Below the pieces are notes generated by a model. That model did not search any database, was not told where the DNA came from, and saw nothing but the letters and a program-made list of their open reading frames with translations. A DNA stretch of 53,372 nucleotides from Macrostomum lignano. Its lineage: Eukaryota. The translations under genes and the position numbers were made by a program. Below are positions 1,966 to 48,053 of the stretch, one piece after another; position 1 is the stretch's first letter; every line of letters begins with the position of its first letter. Where the stretch lies: NCBI GenBank assembly GCA_002269645.1, contig NIVC01004247.1, forward strand, positions 1-53,372, given 5' to 3'.

Positions 1966-2056
1966 AGTAGTATACGTTTTTTGACACAAAGCCGATTTCC
2001 TTATGGCGAAATACATAGTAAGTACAGGCCCAAAAAAATGGCAGAGTCCGAAATTT
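1966..2056 (+). repeat. Left terminal inverted repeat of the Polinton (91 bp)
   Basis: Reverse complement of 16597-16688, apart from one substitution and one homopolymer indel (T6 vs A7). Confidence 0.97.
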
Positions 2057-2113
2057 CATGTGCACGCAGTCTGAAATTCCATGTGCACGCAGTCTGAAAT
2101 TCCAAGTGCACGC
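2045..2113 (+). repeat. Three tandem 23-bp subterminal repeats (AGTCYGAAATTYCAWGTGCACGC)
   Basis: Units at 2045, 2068 and 2091; only one related copy lies at the right end. Confidence 0.9.
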
Positions 2114-2525
2114 TAAATATCTTTTACGCAACGTGATTATTCAGACGAATTGCATATCCACCTGTCCAAAATACAAGTAACCGATTCTAGCAATGGTGAC
2201 ACAAACACACTTCAAAGGATTCCATTCAAGACAAATTTACTCCAAAGCTATTCACACATTTCAAGTGTTTTTGAAATATTGAAAACTTGTGAATATTATC
2301 ACCCTTTTGAAGAAAGATAGTAAATGATCTATTCTTGAGTGCCTATAGAATTTTTGCACCAACTTGAGCAGATGGTTTACAGATACTATGTCAACAACTG
2401 CGTCAACATGCTTTTTCTTTATACTATATATATATATACGAACACACTGACACAGAAAATATTAAATAACTTAAACCAAGTTTACATTATACTACTTGTT
2501 CAACTATACTTACATCTTAAGTGAA

Positions 2526-3473
2526 ATGAAGCGATCACGTCAGCAGGAATTGGCCGAGCGCTATGTTAAACAAGGTAAGATAATCACCTACTCTAGTTCA
2601 GTTTTCTTTTTTAGATTGACTGTTCGCTATAGTTTAGTTTCTAGATTGATTGTTAGTTCGGTTTCTGTTTAGACCGATCCTCTGTTTGTTCAGTCTCTAG
2701 ATTGATTTTTGCTAGTTCGGTTTCTGTTTAGACTAATACTCTGCTAGTTCAGAATTTCTAGATTGATTGTCTGCTAGTTCGGTTTCTGTTTAGACTGATT
2801 CTCTGCTAGTTCAGTTTCTATATACATTGTATACATGCACCTATACCAAATTTCCCTCATCTTATCCATTATTATAGCATTCAAGAATGGTTTCTTCACG
2901 CGGCCACCTCCAGATCAGTGCAAACGCATTTGCCACGACACCACCACATCCAATTCTGCTGCAAGAGCATCATATTCTACATCTCTCGCCAGAGTAACCT
3001 CGATTCATGTCGAGAGACAGACAACTGAGCTAGATCGCATTTACACAAGAACTGATGTTATTCAGTCAATTAGGCAGCAATCGAACCCACGACCAACTGA
3101 CCAACTGCAGTATGCACCACCACCACCATCACCAACCAGCTACAATGACCCAACAAAGCAAACTTGCAGTAAGCCTACAAGTACCAAACCAACGACAGCA
3201 ACTGAAACACCATCATCATCAATTGCTATTTCTACCCAAGTTCAACCGCTGCTAAACTCGCCAATTATTGTACAGAAGGACATCAAGTCTGTAAAAGTCT
3301 CTCAAATGAGCACAGGCTTCTACCAAGTAGAATTACAAAGACCTGTAATACAACTCAAGTATTTGAATATTGGGACCTATCTTAAAAAGACATTTTTTCT
3401 AACTCTTCATAAAATTTTGCCAGCAATGTGTCCAAGTAATTGCTCTTTTAGTATATATCAAACAAGTCTGTAA
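2526..3473 (+). CDS. Spliced viral orphan protein, 214 aa (exons 2526-2574 and 2878-3473), P/S/T-rich
   Basis: ATG-MKRSRQQELAERYVKQ, donor AG|GTAAG at 2575, acceptor TTATAG at 2877; the phase-1 join is in frame with the long ORF ending at 3473. No homology recognised. Confidence 0.55.
2592..2820 (+). repeat. Alternating ~30-bp minisatellite inside the viral intron
   Basis: Repeated GCTAGTTCGGTTTCTGTTTAGAC and GCTAGTTCAG..TCTAGATTGATT units. Confidence 0.8.
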
Positions 3474-3639
3474 TCAATAATATAATCTCTATAAATTCAT
3501 TATTCTAAAAAATTCTTTCAATTTTATTCGCCATTCATATTGAAATTATTTAATTCAATATAAAGTCAATATCTTGTACAGTCATCATTAAACAAAAATT
3601 ATTAATCCATGCAAATAATTTTTTTTCATACGTTTCTTT

Positions 3640-4330
3640 AGCCATGGTCTGGCTTTTGCCTCAACAGTATGATTTAGCTGTGGTCCAGCTTTTGCCTCAA
3701 CAGTATGATTTAGCTGTGGTCCAGCTTTTGCCTCAACAGTTTTTAGCCGTGGTCCGGCTTTTTTGCCTCAGCAGTATGATTTAGCTGTGGTCTAGCTTAA
3801 AACTGCATCAACAGTGATTTAGCTATAGTCCAGGCTTAACTACCTCAACGATGATTTAGCTATAGTCAAGGCTTAACTGTCTCAACAGTAATTTTAGCTG
3901 TTGTCCAGACTTAACTGCCTCAACAGTGATTTTAGCTGTGGTCCAGGCAACTGTCTCAACAGGGATTTAGCTGTAGTCCGATTAGCTTAACTGTCCAGTT
4001 ATTTAGCTGTGAGCCAAGCAGCAGCACCCGTCTCAACAGTGAGAATTAGCTATGGTCAGCTTTACCTCAACTGTGATTTGGCTGCTGTGGTCTAGCATAA
4101 CTGACTCAACAGTAATTTTAGCTGTAGTCGTCCAGCTTAACCACCCGTCCAGTTTTATAACCATGGTCCAGCTTAACCACCGTCTCAACGTACAGCGATT
4201 TAGTCGTGGTCCAGCTTAACCGTCTCAACGTACAGTGATTTAGCCATGGGTCTAGTAGCAATTAACCGTATCAATAGTGATTTAGCCGTGGTCCAGCTTA
4301 ACTGTCTCAACACAGTAATTTAGCTTAGTC
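3640..4330. repeat. Degenerate ~36-40-bp tandem array (about 18 copies) inside the virus
   Basis: Consensus near AGCTGTGGTCCAGCTTAACTGTCTCAACAGTGATTT; the first copies are near-identical and later ones carry indels. Confidence 0.9.
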
Positions 4331-5035
4331 CAAACAGCATTTGTGTGTCAACTGCACTGACTGCATGCGGTTATAGCAGCGGCAGTCATTATAGTCCCAA
4401 CAAGCTGCGCGTCGCAGCATGATAGTGTAACTCTATATAGCTTCTGCTCAATATAGGACTGCAAAAGCTGAGTTACAACTATACCTTTTTCTGTTTGAAA
4501 AGTAACACTCTATATATAGGTTACTCAAGCAATCTCTTGTCACCGTGCGAGCTAAAAAATTCCAACATGCAAGCAAAACTTTCAATAAATTAATTTCATA
4601 GCACCGCGTGCAGCTTATTTTTACTCTAAAATCCAAGATTGCTAATTTTTCAAGTCGCAAAATATTTTAATTACATTCTACTTGAGAACAAAACCAATCT
4701 AATGAAGCAGCAACCAGCAGTCTTCTTATTAAACGCTTGCCATCGTGTTACTCTTGCAAATTTATAACTAGTGTGCCTAAGATTCATTAATTTTATTGTA
4801 TAAAATATCAACCTACATTTGCGTAAAATTAGACCTAATCATGCAACCCACCCTAGAAACTTATGCCACCTTTGGCACGCAACAATGTCTTAATCAGCAC
4901 GCAACAATTAAATTTGTTTACTAGTTCACAAACAGCATGCAAAGCTTGCTATAAATACAAGACCCGAAATGGTCAATTTTTCATGAGCTCAATCATTACA
5001 GCAAAAGAAATACTATATTCAATTGCTTGTAAGAC

Positions 5036-6234
5036 ATGGCAGCTTGCATCAAGACGGAGTCAATTGTACGCTCCGACTCGAGTCCGATTTTTTACGTTGG
5101 AGAGCAGTCTACAACCACGACTGGTTCGTCCTGCCAGTTTCGATCTATTGCGTGGAAACCATCAATCGAGTGTACAAAATGGTACCCAATTATATTGCAA
5201 ACCAAGGCTCCAATGGAGCTTTTTCGTGGAATCGCAGAAAGGCCAGAGCTCGATCATCCGTCTTGCAGACACGACTCTCGCGACGCAGTAAGTGTCCAAT
5301 TTCATCCAGACAGCTGCGATAAGGAACTCTTCCACTCTCTCCGGTGAGCACCATATTAAATTTATACAATTAATTTTAGGAAACTATATTCATAATTTAT
5401 ATAATGTTTTGCAGTCAAGTCGAAAAAGGTCTATCGGTCAAGTTGAACGAGATTCAAGATGCTCGACCCTTGGCACGACTAACAAAACCAGCTCATCAGC
5501 ATGCTAACGACGTCCTCGAGTTTGTGCCTCAACAATGGCTGGCTATAAAGCCTGCTTACCCTTGTGCCACAATCAGGATCAGCAACGATCATCCACACGG
5601 GAAGGAGGTGTCCATTTCCGATTTCAAAGGTGTCAGCGGTACCTACCAAATGACAGTGCAAGCAACGAGCTTGTATTGTCCAAAAGGCTGCCTCGTCTGG
5701 CGCATTACATTCGCTGTGCGCTCTCTGACACTCATAGAATCTTCCGACAACATGTTGCAGCGCCTCGACATGTTCAAGGGAGTGCTTGCACACCTACCCG
5801 CGACCAAGTCAGCAATTAGAAGCAGGAGTCCGTCCCCAACATCTACCTGTGAGCAAGAAGAAGCAAATGAACAAAGCCTGCAGAATTCAAGCCAGGTGAC
5901 ACCTGCCAAGTCACCTGCAAAGCGTCGGTCTACCACCACCGTATCGAAGAAGTCGACTACATCGAATGCAGCGCCAGCCTCTATTGAACCGCCGCCTAAA
6001 AAGCAAGTTCGAAAACGCAGCGGTGCAAAACAGCAAAACAATTCTGCCGAAGCTGGTGCAGATGGCACAGACTGGGTGGAGGCTCCACCAGCAAAGATCT
6101 TGGTGAGTACACCTGCCTCTGGAACCAGGGTAGCGTCCAAGGAGACAGCATTTTTAAAGCGTGCTGCTGCGGACGCTACTACAGCTAGCGTGTCTTCATC
6201 GGACGACTCGTACAGCAGCTCTGATGATGAGTAA
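5036..6234 (+). CDS. Spliced probable OB-fold ssDNA-binding protein, 375 aa (exons 5036-5343 and 5415-6234)
   Basis: Intron 5344-5414 (GTGAG...TTTTGCAG) joins two ORFs in frame. The pattern PIILQT..PM..FRGI...AVSVQF....KELFHSLRQVE...GTYQMTVQATSLY resembles T7 gp2.5-like/NCLDV SSBs, with an acidic C-terminus (SSSDDSYSSSDDE). TATAAAT at 4950. Confidence 0.6.
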
Positions 6235-6443
6235 CAAAATTTTTGACTAATTTTATCCAAGTTTTAACTAACTTATTCCACTATATTTATCAAATTTTTG
6301 GCTAGGGAAATATTATTTTTTAGGGAAAGCTCAAAACATTTTTTGCTACTCCTTGTACGCTAACCAGGTTTTGTAATTTAATATTAGAATTTACGATAGT
6401 ATAGTCATGTTTAACTTTTCTTATTATTTATTTTCCGTTTTAG

Positions 6444-7000
6444 CGACTTGTCCTATTAATAGTTACTGCGAGTCTGAAGCTGCACCCGTTTGAAAAATTT
6501 GATTTAAAGCAGACCAAACAGAAGCTACAGACCAGAAACCGGTTTTGCAAACTATTCCTAAGCCGACCAACAATGCTAAAGACAATTTATTCAAATGCTA
6601 AAATCCAACTTTATCCAGCAGGAAAACTAACTATATATGGCTGTAAATCAAATTCTCAGATAGTCTCAGTTTTACGATTTATCAACGACACTATTAATTG
6701 TGTAGATTTTGATTCAGTAAAAATTCAGAGCAGTACCTATGTCGCTTTATTGGTCATCTTTGGCCAAAATTCGGTTTCTCTAGTCTAAAAAGATATGCAG
6801 GCTACTATTCGAATTATCTGGTTGGATACGATGCAGAAAATTTCCCACAAGCAGTTTCTGTTAGATCAGCATCAAAACCAAGGCTTTTTTGTAACATATT
6901 TTTTTCGAAAAAGTTTGTTATTATGGGCGTTCAAAACACTCATGAATTGAATAATATTCTTAACCATGTCAAGGATTTTTTAATCTCTGTTAATAACTAA
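6444..7000 (+). CDS. TATA-binding protein (TBP)-like ORF, ~185 aa, with one homopolymer frameshift at 6746-6748; start unresolved
   Basis: Repeat 1: LIVTASLKL..FDLKQ...AKIQLYPAGKLTIYGCKS (TBP: NIVSTVNL..LDLKT...TALIFSSGKMVCTGAKS). After adding one T, repeat 2: KIQSS...YDAENFPQ...KPRLFCNIFFSKKFVIMGVQ (TBP: KIQNM...YEPELFPG...[20 protein letters not shown]). Length matches the TBP core. Preceded by an acceptor-like TTTTAG at 6443. Confidence 0.72.
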
Positions 7001-7214
7001 ACTTAACAAGTAAACAATTGCTGTCAAATCGCAGTTGCGATGCATTCTTTTACAAACATTTTGTCTTTTTTTATTTATTTACCAATTGTTTTCTCTAATA
7101 GTAAACGTGTCAGCTATACCTATAACTAACCAAATCATCATTTTTCTTACAGCCGCAAATGACAAACCGGATCATCTATTAATATTATGCTCGATACGCT
7201 CGTTGTCGAGCTAG

Positions 7215-8297
7215 GTGCACACAATGCCGCGTGCACAATGCCAAATCTGCAGAAAAAAGTTCAGTAATCAAGCCGAGCTGCATGCTCACTCGCATGGTGC
7301 TTGTTTTTCACCGCAACGATTACTGACCGGATCGCTGCAAAACCTGATCGAAAACCCACCAGATGGGTGGTCCATCGCTTTGCGCGAGTCAGCTCATCGT
7401 GGTCGGGTAAATTTTGTCGAATTTACTCCCACTCTTGAACAACAAGGCAACAGCTCTGGCGAGTTACTTCCTGGCGAGTTGATTGCGTCTTTAAGAGAAC
7501 CAATATTTAAAATATTGGAAAAAATTGGCTCACCCAGTTTATTAATAAGAGTCTGCTTTCACTTGAAAGTGACACTATTTCGACCGAAAACAGCAGCAGA
7601 CGACAACGATGGCTCGAGCAGCGAAGAGATCATTTCGGTCTATTTTAATACCAACATTGCGACAATATCATTTGATGAGACGATTAAACAGTGACATGCT
7701 GTTATCTCCCGAGGCCTACAATGACTGGTTCGCACGCGTTATTAATCAGTTGTTAATAAAAATTGACAATTTTCAATCTCGAGGTAGTAATTGGCAATAT
7801 AGAGCAATCGAGCAGCTAGACTTGATGCTCTGCGTTTATCGCAAAAGCCATGCAAGCACACTGTCAACAAATACGTCCCACGGTGGTGTGGGGGCGGGCG
7901 GCGGCAGTGGTGGTGGTGGCGGCGGTGGTGGTGGTGGTGGTGGCGGCGGCGGCGGCGGCGGCGGGGGCGGCGGGAGTCCGGTCCAGTCCGGTCCGGTCCA
8001 GTCCGGTCCGGTCTGGTTAAGCAGCAATCGTTTAAAGTTCCAGTCTCAATCGGTCGCAAAGCTGGAGCAGTACTGCTTCTAAAGCCGCACAGAGCAGTTT
8101 AAAGCATCAAGACTATTTAAGAGTCTTACACAAGCGACAACTTGTGTTTTCGCGCATACAGTCCATTCGTTCTCGAAAACAGAAAGTTTTTTTTGATGCA
8201 ACAAAGAAAACTTGCACTAAGCTTCTTCGATACGAAGCGATCCTGGACAAGTTCAATTAATTCGCTACCCTTTGGACACTGGCACTTGGCTAATTAA
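7215..8297 (+). pseudogene. Protein-primed DNA polymerase B remnant: N-terminal region and extreme C-terminus kept, catalytic core absent
   Basis: N-part has a C2H2-like CQICRKKF...LHAHSH and FQSRGSNWQYRAIEQLDLMLCVY, matching the Polinton pPolB N-region F..RGSGW....I..L.L...Y. C-part (8096-8297, one indel near 8205) reads LKHQDYLRVL...IRSRKQ...LSFFDTKR....INSLPFGHW, matching LTHEDY...IRS....LSPFDDKR....TLPYGH. No exonuclease or palm motifs lie between them. Confidence 0.8.
7881..8016 (+). repeat. (GGY)n microsatellite followed by CCGGT/CCAGT pentamers at the polymerase deletion junction
   Basis: Directly visible; reads as poly-Gly in frame with the polymerase N-stub. Confidence 0.95.
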
Positions 8298-8589
8298 TTA
8301 ACAATATGCTCTGATCTCTTTTGTTGTACAAAGTAATAGCATGCTATAGAAGACTGTAACCCATCATTAATTTTTTCATTGATCATTATTTACAATAAAT
8401 AAATGATACCGGCATTCGTTTAAATTATAATTTTAGCACTTTTTTGTGTTTAATTATTTGAAAAAGTATATTTTTTATAGTTAGATTCTCAAGACTAAGC
8501 TTGTGTTTGTAGTAGACGTAAATGTAGTGCTATCGTTCATGTTTCAAGAAAAAAAACTTTTTTTTAAACTTTCAGCTACAAGAATCGAC

Positions 8590-9072
8590 ATGAATCCCGA
8601 GCAGCAGCAGCAACAACAACTAACTGATCGTAAGCTTTTAGTTGAACGTCTATACGATTCGGCAACGATTCCGACCCGAAAAACTGTCGGGTCGATCGGG
8701 TATGATCTTTGCGCTGGCGTCGATGGTACCATTCCGGCCTACGAGTCCCGGAGTGTGCGAACCGGACTCAAAATTCGCTTACCGCCTGGTACCTATGGCA
8801 GGATAGCGGGACGTTCCAGCATGGCTCTGCACAGCTTATTTGTTGGCGGTGGCGTAATCGACCCCGACTATACTGGTGAAATCTGTATAGTCTTGTTTAA
8901 TTACAGTCCGGAAGACTTTGAGTACTATGCCGGGCTCAGTATTGCACAACTGGTTCTGGAGCAGGCCGTGCTTGCTTCAGTCTATGTGACTGAAGCAGAC
9001 AATTCGATTCGGATGATTGAGCCGCCGACCAAGCGGCGCGGCTTTGGCGGCTTTGGCAGCACTGGCCAATAA
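8590..9072 (+). CDS. dut: Viral trimeric dUTPase, 160 aa
   Basis: All five motifs are present: IGYDL, GRSS, GVIDPDYTGE, IAQL, RGFGGFGSTG. ATG at 8590. Confidence 0.95.
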   Translation: MNPEQQQQQQLTDRKLLVERLYDSATIPTRKTVGSIGYDLCAGVDGTIPAYESRSVRTGLKIRLPPGTYGRIAGRSSMALHSLFVGGGVIDPDYTGEICIVLFNYSPEDFEYYAGLSIAQLVLEQAVLASVYVTEADNSIRMIEPPTKRRGFGGFGSTGQ

Positions 9073-9163
9073 GTATAATAATAATAATAAACTGATTTTT
9101 TTCTTTGGTGATTGGTGCACTATGCGAGAGCTTTGTAAATACTATAAGCAATTTTAAAAATTT

Positions 9164-9607
9164 ATGCCTAAAATATATGTTGTAAAAATGTCTCCAGCGA
9201 AAGATCGAGGTTTTAAAAAGAAAAAGAAGAGCATTCGTAAAAAGAAGAAATCTATTAGAAAGATTAATAAAAAGCAACAAGGTTATGGTGTCGTAAATTG
9301 GTTAATTAATCATTTACCATTTGAAGCACATTTACCCGGCGGATATCAGTTTTGTGGTCCAGGTACGCAACTGCAAGCTAGGCTAGCAAAAGGACAACGA
9401 GGAATTAATCGGCTTGACAATTTGTGCATGCTTCACGACGTGGCCTATGATAAAAATTCTGACGTGCAAGAGAGGTTAAAAGCTGATAAGCTATTAGAAT
9501 CTGGTGCACGAGAGATTGCCCACGATCCGTCTACTGGTTGGAAAGAAAAACTAGCTGCGAAGTTGGTTACCAAGGTTATGCAAGTTAAGCAACGCTTTGG
9601 TGCTTGA
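9164..9607 (+). CDS. Parvovirus-type phospholipase A2-domain virion protein (PLA2X-like) with Lys-rich N-terminus
   Basis: HLPGGYQFCGPGT (Ca-loop) and HDVAYD (catalytic HD), as in parvoviral VP1u and adintovirus PLA2 proteins. Confidence 0.9.
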   Translation: MPKIYVVKMSPAKDRGFKKKKKSIRKKKKSIRKINKKQQGYGVVNWLINHLPFEAHLPGGYQFCGPGTQLQARLAKGQRGINRLDNLCMLHDVAYDKNSDVQERLKADKLLESGAREIAHDPSTGWKEKLAAKLVTKVMQVKQRFGA

Positions 9608-9609
9608 AA

Positions 9610-10299
9610 ATGCAGCAGCCATACAATATGCAACTAGCTCACGATTCTACATTTATTATTGCTGGACCTTCAAACTCGGGTAAAACTGAATGGACGTTGC
9701 GTTTGTTGACTGAACGAAAAGAATTATTTGATAAAAAACCGTGCCGTCTTGTTTGGTGCCATGGATCAAGTTTGAAACCAGACGATCAACAACGAATTAG
9801 AACATGCTGGCAAAAAAGCGGTCTTGACCCTATTGTTTTTGTACCCGAATTCACACCACAGATGATTAATCGTTTTTTACCACACGATTTGGTTGTTGTT
9901 GACGACTTGCAAAGCGAGATTGCTAAGTTGCCAGAATTTACTAGTATGTTTACAAAGCATGCGCATCATATCCCTTTGACTTGTCTGTACCTTTGTCAAG
10001 GTCTTTTTAACAAGTCTGATCCAGAAGCACGCATGCGAAGTTTATCAGCTAGTTATATTTGTCTAACTCGTAGTGTGCGCGATCGAACCACAGTTGAACA
10101 TCTCGGTCGACAAATGTATCCGCGTAATAGTAGGTTTCTAGTGAATGTGTATGAAGACGCAACAAATAACAAACCTTTTTCATATTTATTCATTGACCTG
10201 CGGCAAGTGACACCAGATTTTTTACGATTGAGAACAGGAATATTTTCTGGTGATGAACAAGTTGTCTATACTCGTGAATGTGATGCAAAGTTTGTGTAA
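9610..10299 (+). CDS. A32/FtsK-type genome-packaging ATPase
   Basis: Walker A IIAGPSNSGKT, Walker B LVVVDD, and downstream HH..I...YLCQ and R..SLSASY motifs typical of Polinton ATPases. Confidence 0.93.
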   Translation: MQQPYNMQLAHDSTFIIAGPSNSGKTEWTLRLLTERKELFDKKPCRLVWCHGSSLKPDDQQRIRTCWQKSGLDPIVFVPEFTPQMINRFLPHDLVVVDDLQSEIAKLPEFTSMFTKHAHHIPLTCLYLCQGLFNKSDPEARMRSLSASYICLTRSVRDRTTVEHLGRQMYPRNSRFLVNVYEDATNNKPFSYLFIDLRQVTPDFLRLRTGIFSGDEQVVYTRECDAKFV

Positions 10300-10356
10300 T
10301 ATTATTATAAGCAAATTATAAACTGTTGTCAATATTAGTTTGTGTTTTATTTCAAA

Positions 10357-11346
10357 ATGAGTTTTTACGTTTTTTTGCCGTCAAACGATATCAGTTACGA
10401 AACCAACTCGCCTAATGAATTTCGAGTGCGACTAACTGAACCAATAAATTTATTGAACGGATTCTTCGAGGTTGCACTAGTTGAATTACTGTGCCATGGA
10501 GCAATTACGACGCCAAATGCTCATCGTGAGCGTCGATTTGAAGTTCCATATTTTGCGGACATTGACTCAATAATACGATTAAAGAAAAACTATTGGGGTC
10601 GTGTTTGGGCAGAGGCAGACTTGGATGCTTACGTTTCCTGGCAACCGTCTGGTACAGATGAAAAATTTGCCTGGCTTTTACGAAATTCAGGCGAAAAAAC
10701 TATTGGATTAGAACTACCAGTTACATTTATGGACGCTTTCAAATTTGACTCTTGGAAGAAACTTTCTGGACTTGTCTCGGAAAAATTATCAAAACCTGCC
10801 GCTGGTAGTGTACAACCACCGGATGGTTCATACTTGGATTTGATAAAAAGTCTCGACAATACTCTAGCGCTAGTACCTGAGAACTATTATGTTTTTTATT
10901 GTGTTCTATCGCCTGGTGAAGCTATACGACTTGTTTCGCATGGAGACTATCTTCGAAAAACGGAAGGAGAAGTGTACATCAAAGTACACCAATATTGGTT
11001 GAGAAATCGTGTTTGGCGCATTAACAAAACCTACTTGGATGCTGTGCTACCTTCTCCGATGCCTAGTAAAACGGTTTACATGTACTGTTACACAGATATA
11101 ATCGAGTATCAAGCAGTGGGAAGTACATCAGTACCGTTGCTTCGAGTTGTGGAACTCCAACAAAAGAAAAACGGAGAACTTATACGCGATAGCAGTGCAT
11201 TGCAAACACCCTACTACTTGAAAACAAATCGACAACAAATTCACGAGATTTCGATTCGACTATCGGACCAGCGCGGAAAACCGTTTAATTTTGATCCGGG
11301 AGCACACGTTGTTGTCGTACTGCATTTTAAACATAGGTCGGACTAA
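10357..11346 (+). CDS. Minor capsid protein (penton)
   Basis: N-terminal FYVFLPSN...N....FRVRL..PI.L...FEVALVEL and C-terminal YCYTDII....VG....PLLRVV...Y....I.I.L.DQ.G..F.F. Confidence 0.88.
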   Translation: MSFYVFLPSNDISYETNSPNEFRVRLTEPINLLNGFFEVALVELLCHGAITTPNAHRERRFEVPYFADIDSIIRLKKNYWGRVWAEADLDAYVSWQPSGTDEKFAWLLRNSGEKTIGLELPVTFMDAFKFDSWKKLSGLVSEKLSKPAAGSVQPPDGSYLDLIKSLDNTLALVPENYYVFYCVLSPGEAIRLVSHGDYLRKTEGEVYIKVHQYWLRNRVWRINKTYLDAVLPSPMPSKTVYMYCYTDIIEYQAVGSTSVPLLRVVELQQKKNGELIRDSSALQTPYYLKTNRQQIHEISIRLSDQRGKPFNFDPGAHVVVVLHFKHRSD

Positions 11347-11402
11347 TTTATAAGCAAAGATTAATTGTGTAATAGAAAATTTTGTGAATTTGTTTTGTAA
11401 GA

Positions 11403-11831
11403 ATGAGCGAACTAACAGAAAAAGGAAAACAAAATGCTCGCTCATTGTGTCAGTGTGCTTTTTTACTACAAATTGTTTATCGGCTAAAGCATCCAAAGCA
11501 GAGAAAAAGTTTTTTACAAACACTTTCAGAGTCGGAGATACGATGTCTAGTAGACTTTCTGTTTAATATTATTAGTGGACGTATTAAAATTAGTAACTGT
11601 AACAAAAGACGACTTGAGAAGCATCGCAGATATATACGCCAGCTTTTGGAACAGAAGACTCCAATTACTGCAAAAAGGAAAATACTTGTCCAGCACGGAG
11701 GATTTTTACCTTTTTTGGCTCCAATTATTGCTGCTCTACCTGCTATAAGCACTGCGCTTGGGATAACGTCTGGAGTAGTTGGTACCGCCGCGGGAGCAGC
11801 GAATTTAATACGATCAATTCAACGAAAGTAG
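11403..11831 (+). CDS. pX-like basic virion protein with C-terminal hydrophobic peptide
   Basis: Basic helical N-part, then LVQHGGFLPFLAPIIAALPAI, similar to the adenovirus pX precursor tail (GG-ILPLLIPLIAAAI). Confidence 0.75.
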   Translation: MSELTEKGKQNARSLCQCAFLLQIVYRLKHPKQRKSFLQTLSESEIRCLVDFLFNIISGRIKISNCNKRRLEKHRRYIRQLLEQKTPITAKRKILVQHGGFLPFLAPIIAALPAISTALGITSGVVGTAAGAANLIRSIQRK

Positions 11832-11841
11832 TAGGAATATA

Positions 11842-12531
11842 ATGCGAACTAACGAGAGTAGTAGTTTTCAACGAATGTATCTAGTACCTGAATCTGTGTA
11901 TCAATCTGCATGTCAAGGTGCAGAGCAAGGATCGTCACCAACTGCTGAGACACCTCGAAAAACTGAAGTTTTAGACGCACCGCAAGATGCTCTGGCAAAA
12001 AATATGGTGGAAATGAGAGACCAAATGGATAACTTGGACAAGGAAATGGAAAAGGAGCCAAATTACACAGCTCAATTGAAACGAAGCAGATTGGAAGACA
12101 AACATTTAAAATTGCGCAAAGTCTATCGCACTGGAGACGAGGACAATCTGTCACTTGTTCGCAAAGGGACTACTGTAAGAAGTTCATATGCCAGCGAATC
12201 AAGGGAAATTCCTAAAGTTTTTTTACCACGTTTCGAAGCTCTCGCTCAAAACCTATTTTCGGACATGGACAAGAATGCAGAACCAATGCTGGCTAATTTG
12301 ACTGATGCCGAGATACAAGATCTCATGGAATATGTTGTTCGAGACAGACCGCTTAAGCGACACGAGACTCAACCGCCTAGTGGACTAAAAACATTTTTAG
12401 ACTTTCTTCGAAAACGTGGAATCGCAGCAAACCAAATCGGGCGTCATGTACGAAACGAGCTAATGTCTGCTCCAAAAACTGTTGCAAAGGAGGATCTTAG
12501 TCTGTTTGAAAATTATCAAACACTGAATTAA
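11842..12531 (+). CDS. Hypothetical Polinton protein, 229 aa
   Basis: Intact ORF tightly packed in the virion block; N-terminal RMYLVP resembles the KMxLVP start seen in Polinton proteins at this position; charged and helical. Confidence 0.75.
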   Translation: MRTNESSSFQRMYLVPESVYQSACQGAEQGSSPTAETPRKTEVLDAPQDALAKNMVEMRDQMDNLDKEMEKEPNYTAQLKRSRLEDKHLKLRKVYRTGDEDNLSLVRKGTTVRSSYASESREIPKVFLPRFEALAQNLFSDMDKNAEPMLANLTDAEIQDLMEYVVRDRPLKRHETQPPSGLKTFLDFLRKRGIAANQIGRHVRNELMSAPKTVAKEDLSLFENYQTLN

Positions 12532-12643
12532 GTTGTTTTAAAATTACAGATTACGTTTTAACAAAATTGATTCGAGCACTATAAGCTTTTTAAAAAGGTT
12601 AATTTTTTGTTTATGAAAAATATATAGTTTAATAAGACAAACC

Positions 12644-12832
12644 ATGTCATCTATCTTCCAAAAACTTTTGATTCGTCTCTGTGAGTTTTTTTGCATAAAA
12701 TCTGAATGTGTGCCGTTTCTGGGAAAGGAGCACAACGAGGATACTGACGGAGATTCGATCGAGGCTTCGTTCTTTTGTTGCAACTGTCAAACGACTAGCA
12801 TCAATCTAACTGATGATGAAGCGAGTGCGTAA
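12644..12832 (+). CDS. Small Cys-rich hypothetical protein, 62 aa
   Basis: ATG lies 64 nt after a TATAAGC motif; the stop overlaps the integrase start. Confidence 0.45.
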   Translation: MSSIFQKLLIRLCEFFCIKSECVPFLGKEHNEDTDGDSIEASFFCCNCQTTSINLTDDEASA

Positions 12833-13973
12833 GGAAATTGAAGAATTTTTGACGGATGCTTTTTTTAACTTGAACAGGCCTACTTCATTTAGTGGTAACA
12901 AGACTATACTTGTTCGTGAAGTACGTAAAAAGTTTCCACAGATTACGAACAAAGTTGCAAAGCGCGAAGTTGATAATTGGGTGCGATCAACAAATGAGCA
13001 TCATTTATTTCGAAAAACACGACGAAACTTTCCAACTCCAAAAATTAGTGTGCCACCAGTTGCAAAGTTTCAGTTTCAAATCGATTTGGCAGATTTACCT
13101 CAATACAAGACGGAAAATCGAGGTTATCGTTACATACTTGTTCTTATCGACTGTTTTACTAGAGTTGTACGACTAAGACCATTGCGTACAAAGAAGCCTT
13201 CAGAAGTTAGTCAAGTATTACTAGAGATTTTTCGAAGTGGTTTTAAGCCTGTTTATTTACAAGGTGATGCTGGTATGGAGTTTCTCGGAAGAGCTACACG
13301 TCAAATGCTGAAACAGGAAGGAGTTCGATTTTTTGTTAGCCAAAGCAATTACAAGGCAAGCATGGCTGAACGATTTATCCGCTCGTTAAAGGAACGTCTA
13401 TTACGATACTTTCGAGCAAAAAATTTACCTCGATGGTTTGACATTTTACCGCAATTGGAAGATAATTTCAACTCTAGTCCTCATCGATCCTTGAGTGGAG
13501 AAACACCAAAACGGGTAGAGACAGACCCGCATTTACAAGGAATTTTGTGGGACAAAATGTTTGCGAAGTCGTACACTAAAAAGAATGAGAATAAATTTAA
13601 AGTTGGTGATTGGGTTAGAATTACACGACGTCGAGGAACATTTGAAAAAGGATACACTACGACTTGGAGTAATTCAAAATATCGCATTCATCGTGTACAC
13701 TTGACAGACCCGCCAATGTACGAATTAGTGGACCCTGAAGATGGATTTGAAGTGCTGAAAGGAAGGTTTAACCAAGCGGAACTAATGTTGGTAAACGAGA
13801 CAGATGAAACACCTAATGAAATTGAAAAAGTTATTGAAACTGATCGAGCGAAAAATGGAAGTCGTCTGTATCTAGTAAAATGGAAAGGTATGCCAATCTC
13901 AAGAAGTCAGTGGTTAAACGAAAATGATCTTGACGCAAAGACTGCTAAACTATTTTCTAAAGTGTATAAGTAA
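12813..13973 (+). CDS. Retroviral-like DDE integrase with C-terminal chromodomain
   Basis: FQIDLADL...YRYILVLIDCFTR, LQGDAGMEF and KASMAERFIRSLK (D,D,E); chromodomain EIEKVI.......YLVKWKG......W. Confidence 0.96.
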   Translation: MMKRVRKEIEEFLTDAFFNLNRPTSFSGNKTILVREVRKKFPQITNKVAKREVDNWVRSTNEHHLFRKTRRNFPTPKISVPPVAKFQFQIDLADLPQYKTENRGYRYILVLIDCFTRVVRLRPLRTKKPSEVSQVLLEIFRSGFKPVYLQGDAGMEFLGRATRQMLKQEGVRFFVSQSNYKASMAERFIRSLKERLLRYFRAKNLPRWFDILPQLEDNFNSSPHRSLSGETPKRVETDPHLQGILWDKMFAKSYTKKNENKFKVGDWVRITRRRGTFEKGYTTTWSNSKYRIHRVHLTDPPMYELVDPEDGFEVLKGRFNQAELMLVNETDETPNEIEKVIETDRAKNGSRLYLVKWKGMPISRSQWLNENDLDAKTAKLFSKVYK

Positions 13974-14014
13974 CACATGAATTGGGATTGCATGACGAAG
14001 AGAAGACTGTTGAA

Positions 14015-14472
14015 ATGGATCCTATTTTTGCTTTTTATTCTGGTCCGAATAGATCTGCTGAAGGTGGAGGTGGATATGGCATTCCTGTTTACGAAGGTTA
14101 CGTTTTTTGTCAAATTTGGCGGACAGATTGGTGTATCCTGTACTACGCAACGCAAAGAAAGATTTCTTGGATCGTGGTCTGGAGTATTTGAAAAGTGCGA
14201 CAGCAAAAATTGGTATGGGTCGGAAGCGTCACTTGGACACAGAATCGAGCGAAGAGATGTTTAATACAACTGCAGTTTCGAGACCAAAGCGAAGGAAAAG
14301 AACCAGTGGAGTGGCTATAAGCTTAGGAAAGAAGAAACGGCAAAAGAAACGACGAACAAGACAGTGTGGAAAGGGACGCGTGAACAAAAGAAAACGCAAG
14401 AAGACCGGTGGTATAGGAAAACGTCGAACTGCTACTGCAAGCAAGAAACTTTTTAGTCTGTTTGAAAAGTAG
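14015..14472 (+). CDS. Basic core (pVII-like) protein with one frameshift in a T-run at 14103-14108
   Basis: MDPIFAFY...GGGGYGIPVYEGY joins FLSNLADRLVYP...RKRH...KKKRQKKRRTRQ if one T is added. The D..YY....GG...VY.G start and Arg/Lys-rich tail fit Polinton core proteins. Confidence 0.65.
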
Positions 14473-14473
14473 C

Positions 14474-15796
14474 ATGAACCATTTGCTTGGACCTGATATT
14501 GCTGCTCTTAAAAGTGAATTGTCGCTATTTGATCAAAGTCCTGTTCAGTTTAGTGTTTTGGATAATCGATATACTAACATTCAACCGCAACATGGTATTA
14601 CAAAAGGATCACCTATCGAATTTGAAGTTGTGCCTGCAGGCGATTTGTATTTGGATCTACAAGAAACTGTGCTCACGGTATGCTTCAGCGTTAGTGATAG
14701 TGAAGGTGAACCTATAGATGCAACGAAAAATTTTGTTTGTTTGAATAATTTGGTTATTGGAACATTGTTTGAGGACGTTCAATTTACTATTGGCGATACT
14801 GTAGTTGAAGGTGGTAGTTTTATGTATCCATACAAGGCTATGCTTCTTACATTACTGGAATATGGACATACAGCTCAGAAGGCTGGTTTACTGCCGTGGG
14901 GGTTTTACAAGGATACAGCTGGTAAAATGAATGCAACAAGTGAAAACGATGGACGAACAAAGAGGCAGGCGCTCATTGCTAACAATAGGCGGTGCACTGT
15001 ATCGGGGCCGTTATTCTTGGATTTGTTTCGTCAGCCTCGGTATCTACTATCAAAGACACCACTACGGATCAAGCTCATACCGGCAAAAAGTAAATTTGTC
15101 CTGAGCGGGTCAACATTAGAAGCTGGTGCGGTTTTAAAAGACTATGAGATCAAGTTTTTGCGTGCAGAACTACGATTGCGGTTTGTTCAACCCTCGCCGA
15201 GTGTTATCAGTGCACATGCTCATGGACTTAAAAGTCACAATGCATTATATCCGCACCGAAGTCTAAGCCTTGGTACGTTTACTATACCCCGAGGATCGTC
15301 TAGCCATACGCATGAAAATTTGTTTCCTAGTGGGGTACCACGGCTTTTATTGATGGCAATTGTAAGCAACAAGGCATTCAATGGAAGCATGGACACAAAT
15401 CCGTTCAACTTTGAGCATGCAAATGTGAGCAGCATTGGTGTGTTTGTGAATGGAGACTCGGTACCATCGCGTCCGCTGCAGACAAACTTTGGAGATGATT
15501 GTGTGACAGAGTATAATTTTTTGCTACAACAGCTTGGAATCTATCTACAGGGACGAGATATTGGATTTAATATGCTGGATTACGCCAATGGTTACTCAAT
15601 TTTTGCATTCAGTCTTGGAAGTGAACCTGGTGTCGGACGGGGAGTGCAACTGTATAAGGAAGGAAATGTAAAACTAGAGTTACGCTTCAATGCTGCAACT
15701 AGTACCGTGTACAACGTCATATTTGGAGGTATATTTGACAAGCAACTGCAACTGACTGAACTTCGCGACATTGTTCCTGGCACAGTATGGAAGTAA
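14474..15796 (+). CDS. Major capsid protein (double jelly-roll hexon), 440 aa
   Basis: KSELSLFDQSPVQ...PIEF.V......YLDLQET, GPLFLDLFRQPRYL, FNGS...NPFNFEH, and GY.IFAF.L; intact ORF. Confidence 0.93.
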   Translation: MNHLLGPDIAALKSELSLFDQSPVQFSVLDNRYTNIQPQHGITKGSPIEFEVVPAGDLYLDLQETVLTVCFSVSDSEGEPIDATKNFVCLNNLVIGTLFEDVQFTIGDTVVEGGSFMYPYKAMLLTLLEYGHTAQKAGLLPWGFYKDTAGKMNATSENDGRTKRQALIANNRRCTVSGPLFLDLFRQPRYLLSKTPLRIKLIPAKSKFVLSGSTLEAGAVLKDYEIKFLRAELRLRFVQPSPSVISAHAHGLKSHNALYPHRSLSLGTFTIPRGSSSHTHENLFPSGVPRLLLMAIVSNKAFNGSMDTNPFNFEHANVSSIGVFVNGDSVPSRPLQTNFGDDCVTEYNFLLQQLGIYLQGRDIGFNMLDYANGYSIFAFSLGSEPGVGRGVQLYKEGNVKLELRFNAATSTVYNVIFGGIFDKQLQLTELRDIVPGTVWK

Positions 15797-16350
15797 TTGA
15801 TTCTATCCTAGATCGTGGTGTAACAGATCGCTTCCTTCGCAATGTTGTATCGAAATTGTGCGCACATTTTTTAAATGTTGTATTTCTTGGTGTTTTTCCT
15901 CAAAACTTTGTTGGTGGACTTAGACGCTTACCTTTAGACGGTAAAGACTATTTTTTTATCGTTAATACTGACGTCTCCAACCTGCCCGGAAAACATTGGG
16001 TATGCGTTTGGGTTTATGGTCATCGAGCAGGTCGCGGTAGCAAACGACTTGGTGAATATTTTGATTCTCTTGGTCTAGTACCATTGCCAAGAATAGCAAA
16101 ATGGCTAGGAAAAGAATGTGGAAATTCGAAAAATTGGTGTTATAGTCGCTTTGCTATCCAAGACCCACAGAGTGGAAGTTGTGGATTTTGGGTAATTTTT
16201 TATATTTTTCATAAGTTGACTACCAGAGGAAACCTAGAGTGTTTTATTCGAAGCGTTTTTAAACGGAATATAATTCGCACTGGTTCGTTTCGATACTTGT
16301 ATGCTAAATTACGCAATTTTGTTTTACGAGTGCTGCCTCAATATTTGTAA
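15787..16350 (+). CDS. Adenain-family cysteine protease
   Basis: FLGVFP...IVNTD.S..PGKHWV...EYFDSLG...IQD..SGSCG.W (catalytic His, Asp, Gln, Cys). Confidence 0.93.
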   Translation: MEVIDSILDRGVTDRFLRNVVSKLCAHFLNVVFLGVFPQNFVGGLRRLPLDGKDYFFIVNTDVSNLPGKHWVCVWVYGHRAGRGSKRLGEYFDSLGLVPLPRIAKWLGKECGNSKNWCYSRFAIQDPQSGSCGFWVIFYIFHKLTTRGNLECFIRSVFKRNIIRTGSFRYLYAKLRNFVLRVLPQYL

Positions 16351-16596
16351 ACTCGCTAATTTGTGCGTCAAATTGTGTTTGTATCTAGTTGAAATATACA
16401 ATACTGCTTGAAAAGAAGAATTTAAATGCGTTAAGTTATACGCAAAATAAGCTTTGTGTCAAATTGAATTTTGGTTGGGCTTGTAATTAGCTGCATTCAT
16501 TGCGGATAGAATTTAGGTGGATAGACAGGTGTTTGCGTAAAAGTGATTCAGCTAATTGGTTAATTCATTGCGTAAAAGCTAGTTTGCGTGCACGGC

Positions 16597-16688
16597 AAAT
16601 TTCAGACTCTGCCATTTTTTTGGGCCTGTACTTACTATGTATTTCGCCATAAGGAAATCGGCTTTGTGTCAAAAAAACGTATACTACT
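16597..16688 (-). repeat. Right terminal inverted repeat of the Polinton (92 bp)
   Basis: Matches 1966-2056; weaker similarity extends inward to about 16569 (GTGCACGC and TGCGTAAAAG motifs). Confidence 0.97.
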
Positions 16689-17179
16689 CACATTCACATT
16701 TACCTATTAGGTTTTATAAAATTGACTAACTTTGCTCCATAAGTTTGCTCTATATGAACTAATTGACTTCAAACTTGACACAACTTTTTATAGCTTTATT
16801 CTTTGTCTAAATATGGTCTTAACTCTGTAACTCAAACAGAACAGAAATTCTAAGCTTATGAAGTTTGTAATTTTTTCTGTTGTTTACTGCTTTCACTTAT
16901 TCCTACAAACTAAGGGCCAGGCAATAGGGCTCAGTCTTCATAGCAAATGTACAATGTTATGGAATAAATTTATTTTTATAGCCTTCTCTGCACCTTCACA
17001 TATGGAGAGGCTATATTCAGCCATGATAATTTAGTGAGAAATTCAAAACACTGTGCTCTATATAGGCAAACTCTGCAGCAATTAAACAGTAGATGGCAAA
17101 TCAAGGCAATGCAAAATACAATGCTATTAAATTGGTCACACCATGGAACTTTTAACATTAAATTTCACTTAAAAGTTTT

Positions 17180-47324: not shown

Positions 47325-48053
47325 GGGTGCGTTCGAGTGACTTAAAATGACTTAAACTGTTATTTTAACGTCCTTAGTAAAACAAATGTTAAGCAGACTA
47401 AATGTAAAAATAATCTAGGTAAATGATAGTCAAATTACAATTAAGAATTAATTCAATTTCTAAAACCGGTCTAAGATTAAAAAAACGTCGCCTATACTTC
47501 TTCCAACTCAACCTGAACGCCTAGGCACCGTTTTAACTTCGCTCGCAATTACCACATTTAATCGTAATTGAATATTTTGTATTCTTCACCTTTGTTCTAT
47601 CATTTGCTTTCACGTCATATTTCACGTCACGTCACGTCAGGACAGCAATATACAATCTATAGACAATATGATTTGGTATACTTCGTATATAAGTTGACTG
47701 TGATATTAGTACTAAGCAATTATTCAAAGACTATAATGACGGGCAGCGAACTGAGCAAAAAGACGTGAAAGCAAATGATAGAACAAAGGTGAAGAATACA
47801 AAATATTCAATTACGATTAAATGTGGTAATTGCGAGCGAAGTTAAAACGGTGCCTAGGCGTTCAGGTTGAGTTGGAAGAAGTATAGGCGACGTTTTTTTA
47901 ATCTTAGACCGGTTTTAGAAATTGAATTAATTCTTAATTGTAATTTGACTATCATTTACCTAGATTATTTTTACATTTAGTCTGCTTAACATTTGTTTTA
48001 CTAAGGACGTTAAAATGGCAGTTTAAGTCATTTTAAGTCACTCGAACGCACCC
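47325..48053. mobile_element. Young PIF/Harbinger-type MITE, 729 bp, with 292-bp terminal inverted repeats
   Basis: Arms 47325-47616 and 47762-48053 are near-perfect reverse complements beginning GGGTGCGTTCGA; 3-bp direct repeat CAA on both sides. Confidence 0.85.

Follow-up and report, generated by a model that had tools for sequence, protein, structure and literature searches.

A Polinton/Maverick insertion in the flatworm Macrostomum lignano with a deleted polymerase core

Introduction

Protein-primed replication requires pPolB, and in polintons the terminal protein (TP) arrives fused to this polymerase. The order described for the polinton pPolB is TP (D1), linker, vOTU and polymerase, with the vOTU probably cutting the TP off (Krupovic et al., 10.1101/2024.03.18.585575). 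The same study reports the little-finger domains of Y-family polymerases as structural neighbours of TPs, and describes the fused D1 as devoid of the helical extensions by which free TPs are proposed to contact the polymerase. The (AGT)2-type end motif was found to be the commonest one in vertebrate Mavericks (PMC8097293). Defective polinton copies are an already known kind of element, and polintons that lack PolB and yet stayed mobile or became amplified were reported in Pieris mannii and in a second insect group. In these insects LINE or gypsy cargo occurs at or near the loss, several related insertions are found, and more complete relatives are present in the same genome; whether such polintons are mobilised in trans was left open (10.1101/2025.02.07.637071). 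Non-autonomous Polintons are apparently absent in anole (PMC3014272).

Here we analyze a 53,372-nt stretch of the M. lignano genome (the window), which harbors an element that shares with the Polinton/Maverick group (Polintoviricetes, with endonuclease VII-containing pPolB) its (AGT)2 TIR ends, 6-bp TSD, RVE integrase, capsid, candidate ATPase and probable protease, as well as the C2H2-TP-linker-vOTU order of pPolB. With its missing part restored the element would span ~17.9 kb, as compared with 12.7-24.6 kb for intact vertebrate elements (PMC8097293). It differs from the group in lacking the polymerase core and vOTU, in having all of its genes on one strand, and in carrying dUTPase and TBP-like accessory genes. 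TIR flanks, loss of polB and retention of the other polinton genes together with the integrase are features shared with the PolB-lacking polintons of insects, and a more complete relative (P0009, known from a partial model) is found in M. lignano as well. In contrast to the insect cases, the deletion is a clean one that keeps both ends of the gene, and one copy of its junction is known. Our literature search, carried out mostly on non-subscription text (including PMC8097293, PMC11414722, PMC11296320, 10.1101/2023.08.22.554363 and 10.1101/2022.07.12.499685), found in the accessible parts no report of a TP-retaining, vOTU-less polinton and nothing specific on the endonuclease VII grouping or on defective-interfering polintons.

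Results

Boundaries and setting of the element

The Polinton/Maverick-type insertion spans positions 1966-16688 of the window (14,723 bp). It begins with AGTAGT and finishes with ACTACT, and hence carries ends of the (AGT)2//(ACT)2 type, which along with (AG)3 characterizes Polintons. A 6-bp TSD, CACATT, occurs on both sides without a mismatch (1960-1965 and 16689-16694, no strand assigned; probability of a random 6/6 match, 4e-4), and the target site was a short tandem, because a second CACATT comes after the right TSD (16689-16700). The TIRs are ~103 bp long (left, 1966-2068 on the forward strand; right, 16585-16688 on the reverse strand) and agree in 99 of 104 alignment columns; they differ by one length change in a T run and by four mismatches in the inner part, where they overlap a 23-bp repeat. 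The initial annotation's description of near-identical TIRs, a perfect TSD and a recent insertion was thus borne out, and the element looks young. It points to a Polinton family in Macrostomum that was active recently and has apparently not been described: no report of Macrostomum polintons was found in the accessible literature, in which work joining the two terms concerns Tc1/mariner.

The inner end of the left TIR passes into the 23-bp subterminal repeats, of which there are three copies at the left end (2045-2113) and one altered copy at the right end (16585-16610). The left arm of the element is packed with degenerate tandem arrays of 32-75-bp units (2630-2820, 3637-4324), and its frames at 2835-3473, 4863-5347 and 5404-6234 matched no Pfam or PHROG family. 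In the host flank (17176-44000 and 47325-48053) there are many satellites, with periods of 4, 15, 20, 24, 28, 30, 33 and 42. The flank also contains an inverted repeat of 297 bp, its arms separated by a 135-bp spacer, which may be a MITE.

Gene content outside the polymerase

Nine genes of the element, amounting to 6.8 kb and all on the forward strand, have no internal stop. These encode a dUTPase (8590-9072; Pfam dUTPase, E 2e-29); a phospholipase A2-like protein (9164-9607; Pfam Phospholip_A2_4, E 3.6e-9), which we take to be PZ; a candidate packaging ATPase (9610-10299) with Walker A and B motifs, unnamed by Pfam or PHROG; a 329-aa protein (10357-11346) that matched nothing in Pfam or PHROG and that we presume to be the minor capsid protein; a core protein resembling adenovirus protein X/mu (11403-11831; Pfam Adeno_PX, E 2.5e-6); a 229-aa protein to which no function was assigned (11842-12531), 174/175 residues of which are identical to part of the record P0001; an RVE integrase with a chromodomain and D-D-E motifs (12813-13973; Pfam rve and Chromo above cut-off); a full-length major capsid protein (14474-15796); and a probable maturation cysteine protease with His/Asp/Cys motifs (15787-16350), for which the matches were weak (Peptidase_C5, E 0.043; PDB 6lj9, E 0.008). 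The capsid protein is colinear with its relatives P0021 and P0022 along its whole length (442/442 residues, 67% identity to each), and is 31% identical to an F54H12.2-like protein, a family that we take to be the Polinton capsid.

The claim that the capsid, integrase, ATPase and protease ORFs are open therefore holds for all four. Describing the element as otherwise intact was an overstatement, because two genes besides pPolB are split, each over two frames. One is located directly 5' of the capsid gene (14015-14472, forward strand), where the frame changes near a T run at 14103; it matched no family, and from its motif we take it to be PW. The other, a TBP-like gene upstream of pPolB (6444-7000, forward strand), matched Pfam TBP below the cut-off (E 0.011 and 0.003) and the TBP structure PDB 1mp9 (E 2.8e-5). 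The literature search found, in the accessible text, no report of a TBP in a polinton.

Exact look-ups of nine window proteins found none of them, with two of the nine queries having wrong starts, and the best capsid match among 19, out of 8,000 scored candidates, was 67% identical; the capsid search was unable to count copies because no near-identical capsid turned up.

The polymerase remnant and the extent of the deletion

Relatives of pPolB were collected in steps. A first search gave five matches, of which P0003 (PAA86599.1) was the one useful relative; P0002, a Chlorobium repeat protein, was set aside as a chance match, and P0004 and P0005 were set aside as matches to the zinc-finger region. 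Searching with P0003 led to seven longer proteins, and a cluster look-up added P0017 (PAA65278.1), a 1,422-aa M. lignano protein that serves as the reference for numbering. The nearest named proteins are all M. lignano models: PAA91590.1 (P0009), P0017, PAA84795.1 (P0007) and P0003.

By P0017 numbering, the element keeps residues 1-298 and ~1358-1422 of pPolB, while about 1,059 codons (~3.2 kb) are missing. The earlier statement that only the N-terminal region and the last ~70 aa are present was accurate, as ~298 N-terminal and ~65 C-terminal codons remain. Lost are the catalytic Cys and His of the vOTU, the exonuclease motifs, endonuclease VII and palm motifs A-C, so that no complete pPolB with exonuclease and polymerase motifs is found in this element. 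The deleted part of P0017, P0009 and P0008 had no tblastn match across the 53 kb (best E 0.28). We also found no replacement replicase (S1H, S3H, PolA or AEP) among 20 frames compared with Pfam and 10 compared with PHROG: the longest frame in the left arm has 284 codons, 0/10 frames matched PHROGs, and the left-arm frames tested against Pfam gave weak TBP matches alone. The element is unable to replicate itself because the polymerase motifs are missing, and it is a defective derivative rather than an autonomous member of the Polinton/Maverick group.

What remains of the gene, on the forward strand, is fragmented. The first piece (7224-7685) contains a C2H2 finger (zf-C2H2, E 0.0075, below cut-off) and the first half of the TP (D1) domain; it is 39% identical to residues 1-159 of P0017, had no match above 0.80 in the ESM Atlas, and ends in a frame break at ~7686. 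According to the alignment to relatives, the second piece (7687-7887) encodes helix a2, the predicted linking Ser (7786-7788), strand b4 and a GG. It is followed by a GGC/GGT tract and GTCCG repeats (7882-8017), with a second frame break at the 3' end of the tract; comparison with P0009 and P0017 identifies this stretch as the native linker between TP and vOTU, and P0017 carries a Gly/Ala-rich stretch at the same position. The third piece (7965-8096) comprises the end of the linker and the start of the vOTU, stopping short of the catalytic Cys, and is identical to residues 3-46 of P0009 at 38 of 44 positions. The C-terminal ~65 codons (8096-8297) are distributed over two frames, owing to a third break at the T run 8187-8194, and show 34-43% and 61-67% identity to the C-termini of P0003, P0007, P0015 and P0017. 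Broken at these three places, the remnant does not form a single open frame.

The deletion junction

The junction maps to ~8094-8098 on the forward strand, with the left frame running into a stop at 8100-8102. Identity to P0009 reaches 9/9 codons up to 8094-8096 and then ceases, and C-terminal homology begins from about 8096-8104. This position is downstream of the interval 7850-8050 in which the junction had been placed, and lies within a unique stretch: one of 110 12-mers at the junction is repeated in the window, as compared with 23/83 in the G tract. P0009 (1,084 aa, a partial model) starts in the Gly run, extends across the GTCCG repeats and agrees with 38/44 residues encoded by 7965-8096; the GGC tract is therefore the native linker. 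The tract itself was considered as the site of the junction or of a collapse and rejected, as the junction is found ~120 bp further on. For the same reason a repeat collapse, which the initial annotation had named as one finding that would overturn its reading, is an unlikely cause, and the downstream side of the tract is present and colinear with P0009.

Nor does the remnant stop near the GG, as had been proposed: it runs on through the Gly tract to 8096, and the cut falls ~70 codons past the GG that closes the TP part and 5 codons before the catalytic Cys of the vOTU. The cut ignores the domain border rather than following the TP end.

No protein record with the same junction was found in the protein searches. 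As a junction in DNA is invisible to such searches, their silence is weak evidence.

The retained TP domain

The fold was modelled for residues 1-185 of the relative P0008 from an 8-row alignment that included both window pieces. In the model (pLDDT 83) the elements follow one another as b0-b1-a1-b2-b3-a2-b4, and a Gly-Ser occupies the loop between a2 and b4; this accords with the D1 architecture of a sheet with four or five strands and two helices, little-finger-like in fold. Eight of its top nine VIA matches were Y-family polymerases, mostly their little-finger domains, the best with Z 7.0, rmsd 3.9 A and 113 aligned residues, where a Z under 8 is not decisive alone. Foldseek found nothing at E<=0.001 in the PDB (best match polymerase iota, E 6e-3) and four matches at this threshold in BFVD, including a C2H2 protein from an adintovirus and the PolB of a MELD virus; the 50 BFVD matches listed contained no entry labelled as a TP of PRD1 or adenovirus. 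The ESM Atlas gave unnamed clusters only for this part of P0008. The best BFVD match, A0A7D4VFN9, is a C2H2 protein from Drosophila-associated adintovirus 2; at 560 aa it falls short of a full pPolB, and it may be a split or partial polymerase.

The Gly-Ser of the window (7783-7788) aligns with Ser153 of P0008 in the a2-b4 loop, placing the predicted linking Ser where PRD1-like TPs are expected to have a linking Ser or Tyr, near Gly/Pro, and the HGG at 7879-7887 (GG at 7882-7887) aligns with the GG that closes the TP part in P0008 and P0019. From the P0008 fold together with these two alignments, we assign the retained N-terminal part of pPolB to the TP domain, with the GG as its probable end. 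The domain of the relative folds like the published TP. Regarding the GG as approximately the end of the TP agrees with the relatives, whereas the remnant does not stop there.

The predicted fold, the Ser between a2 and b4 next to a Gly, and the little-finger neighbours are shared with PRD1-like and adenovirus TPs and with pPolB D1 (10.1101/2024.03.18.585575). Unlike stand-alone TPs, which are separate genes with helical extensions, the region studied here is the stump of a fusion gene, broken in frame and bearing a linker tail. The first break, at ~7686, falls between strand b3 and helix a2, so that the TP domain does not occupy one open frame; this could be a sequencing error. The near-identical record P0001 reads through this point, and the break is therefore recent or copy-specific.

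Related records

P0001 is near-identical to the window over 7599-12447 and then continues into two tandem Gypsy-type units, an element that is absent from the 41 kb downstream of the splice point in the window. P0001 represents this subfamily at a different locus, in another haplotype or in another assembly. We rejected it as evidence of a second deleted copy: its model splices the GTCCG repeats to the dUTPase, skips three other open genes as well, and is unable to show the junction because it splices over it. P0009, which is 86% identical over 44 aa, keeps the vOTU, exonuclease and palm motifs; this partial model represents a sister subfamily.

Discussion

The most likely reading, which we hold with evenly balanced confidence, is that of a young defective Polinton copy. 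The insertion carries one internal deletion of ~3.2 kb in pPolB that, by alignment to relatives, took out the polymerase palm together with the vOTU protease, the exonuclease and endonuclease VII. The TP coding region would survive because it lies upstream of the break, as a passenger that is presumably unused for priming. The deletion would have arisen at or after insertion, leaving a single defective copy that probably never spread. This reading is favored by the lack of a polymerase or replacement replicase, by a cut that is indifferent to the domain border, by the broken TP frame and the two further split genes, and by the failure to find a protein record with the same junction. Nothing here shows that the element has used the polymerase of a helper to spread. 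As it retains its TIR origins and the genes for integrase and capsid, replication by a complete relative that provides the entire TP-vOTU-polymerase precursor is conceivable in principle; since the TP is fused to pPolB, such a helper would come with a primer of its own, and the TIRs would be all that it requires.

Some points stand against a simple defective copy. Three of five frame breaks fall in the 1.07-kb polymerase remnant, which makes up 12% of the coding sequence (binomial p 0.015, or 0.07 without the G tract; a post hoc comparison). This clustering fits selection on the other genes after loss of the polymerase, and two of the three remnant breaks lie in slippage-prone runs. In addition, P0001 provides a second near-identical sequence, joined to a Gypsy element, and PolB-lacking polintons were amplified in insects. 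These points would likewise fit a loss that preceded insertion, as the initial annotation had it.

These same observations suggest a non-autonomous lineage mobilised by a helper, which we regard as possible and hold tentatively. The deletion would then have arisen in a replicating genome, as in the defective-interfering type, with the complete TP-vOTU-polymerase precursor of a relative acting on the TIRs, the element's own integrase inserting the product, and its own TP remnant being unneeded and decaying. The gathering of breaks in the polymerase remnant while the capsid, integrase, ATPase and protease genes stay open, the perfect TSD and near-identical TIRs, the occurrence of P0001 in another context, and a close M. 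lignano relative that keeps the motifs lost here all agree with this. Helper dependence is also plausible because PolB-lacking polintons stayed mobile in insects (10.1101/2025.02.07.637071). However, the protein searches revealed no further instance of the junction, the P0001 model splices over it, P0009 belongs to a sister subfamily, and the gene 5' of the capsid is broken too.

That the element keeps its own priming protein and borrows the polymerase alone, much like the adenovirus-type split of TP and polymerase, was the initial annotation's proposal, and we consider it improbable. The whole D1 domain is retained along with the predicted linking Ser, P0001 is open at the first break, and the start at 7224 shares a frame with the post-junction stop at 8100-8102, so that a product of ~290 aa would result should both internal breaks be sequencing errors. 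Yet the frame is broken twice in this copy, and the cut leaves a ~70-residue tail while removing the protease that would trim it. The D1 domain is devoid of the extensions proposed to bind the polymerase (10.1101/2024.03.18.585575), and a helper, which makes TP and polymerase as one chain, already carries the TP in cis. Among co-resident elements of fungal linear plasmids, 21/23 keep their own polymerase (PMC13348850). Equally hard to credit is a multi-copy flatworm satellite lineage in which one deletion would have made the TP part of the pPolB precursor into a separate gene of ~290 aa, its product priming the element's own TIRs for a helper polymerase after trimming by the vOTU of that helper, as this requires that both breaks in the N-terminal remnant be sequencing errors or copy-specific. 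If true, it would be a present-day repeat of the adenovirus TP/polymerase split.

Cut-and-paste mobility by the RVE integrase and TIRs, with no polymerase involved, would accord with an open integrase bearing D-D-E motifs and with TIRs and TSD in place, but we think it very unlikely: it leaves the open capsid, ATPase and protease genes unexplained, evidence of excision is absent, and the accessible literature gave no description of it. An assembly artefact, in which a full polymerase is present but dropped, is given just as little credence. Several single-site frame breaks and the one-base TIR difference fall in homopolymer or tandem runs, so the assembly may carry indel errors, but the junction lies in unique sequence away from the tract.

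Taken as a single defective copy, the element is of little consequence beyond marking a Polinton family in Macrostomum. Should the junction recur at several loci, it would document the mobilisation of polintons in trans in a clean form, free of cargo, and in a laboratory animal, and the TP codons across copies would test whether a free D1 does anything. In another M. lignano model, P0003, palm motif C follows immediately on helix a2 of the TP; this may reflect either a predicted intron or a further pPolB deletion, distinct from the present one, in a sister subfamily.
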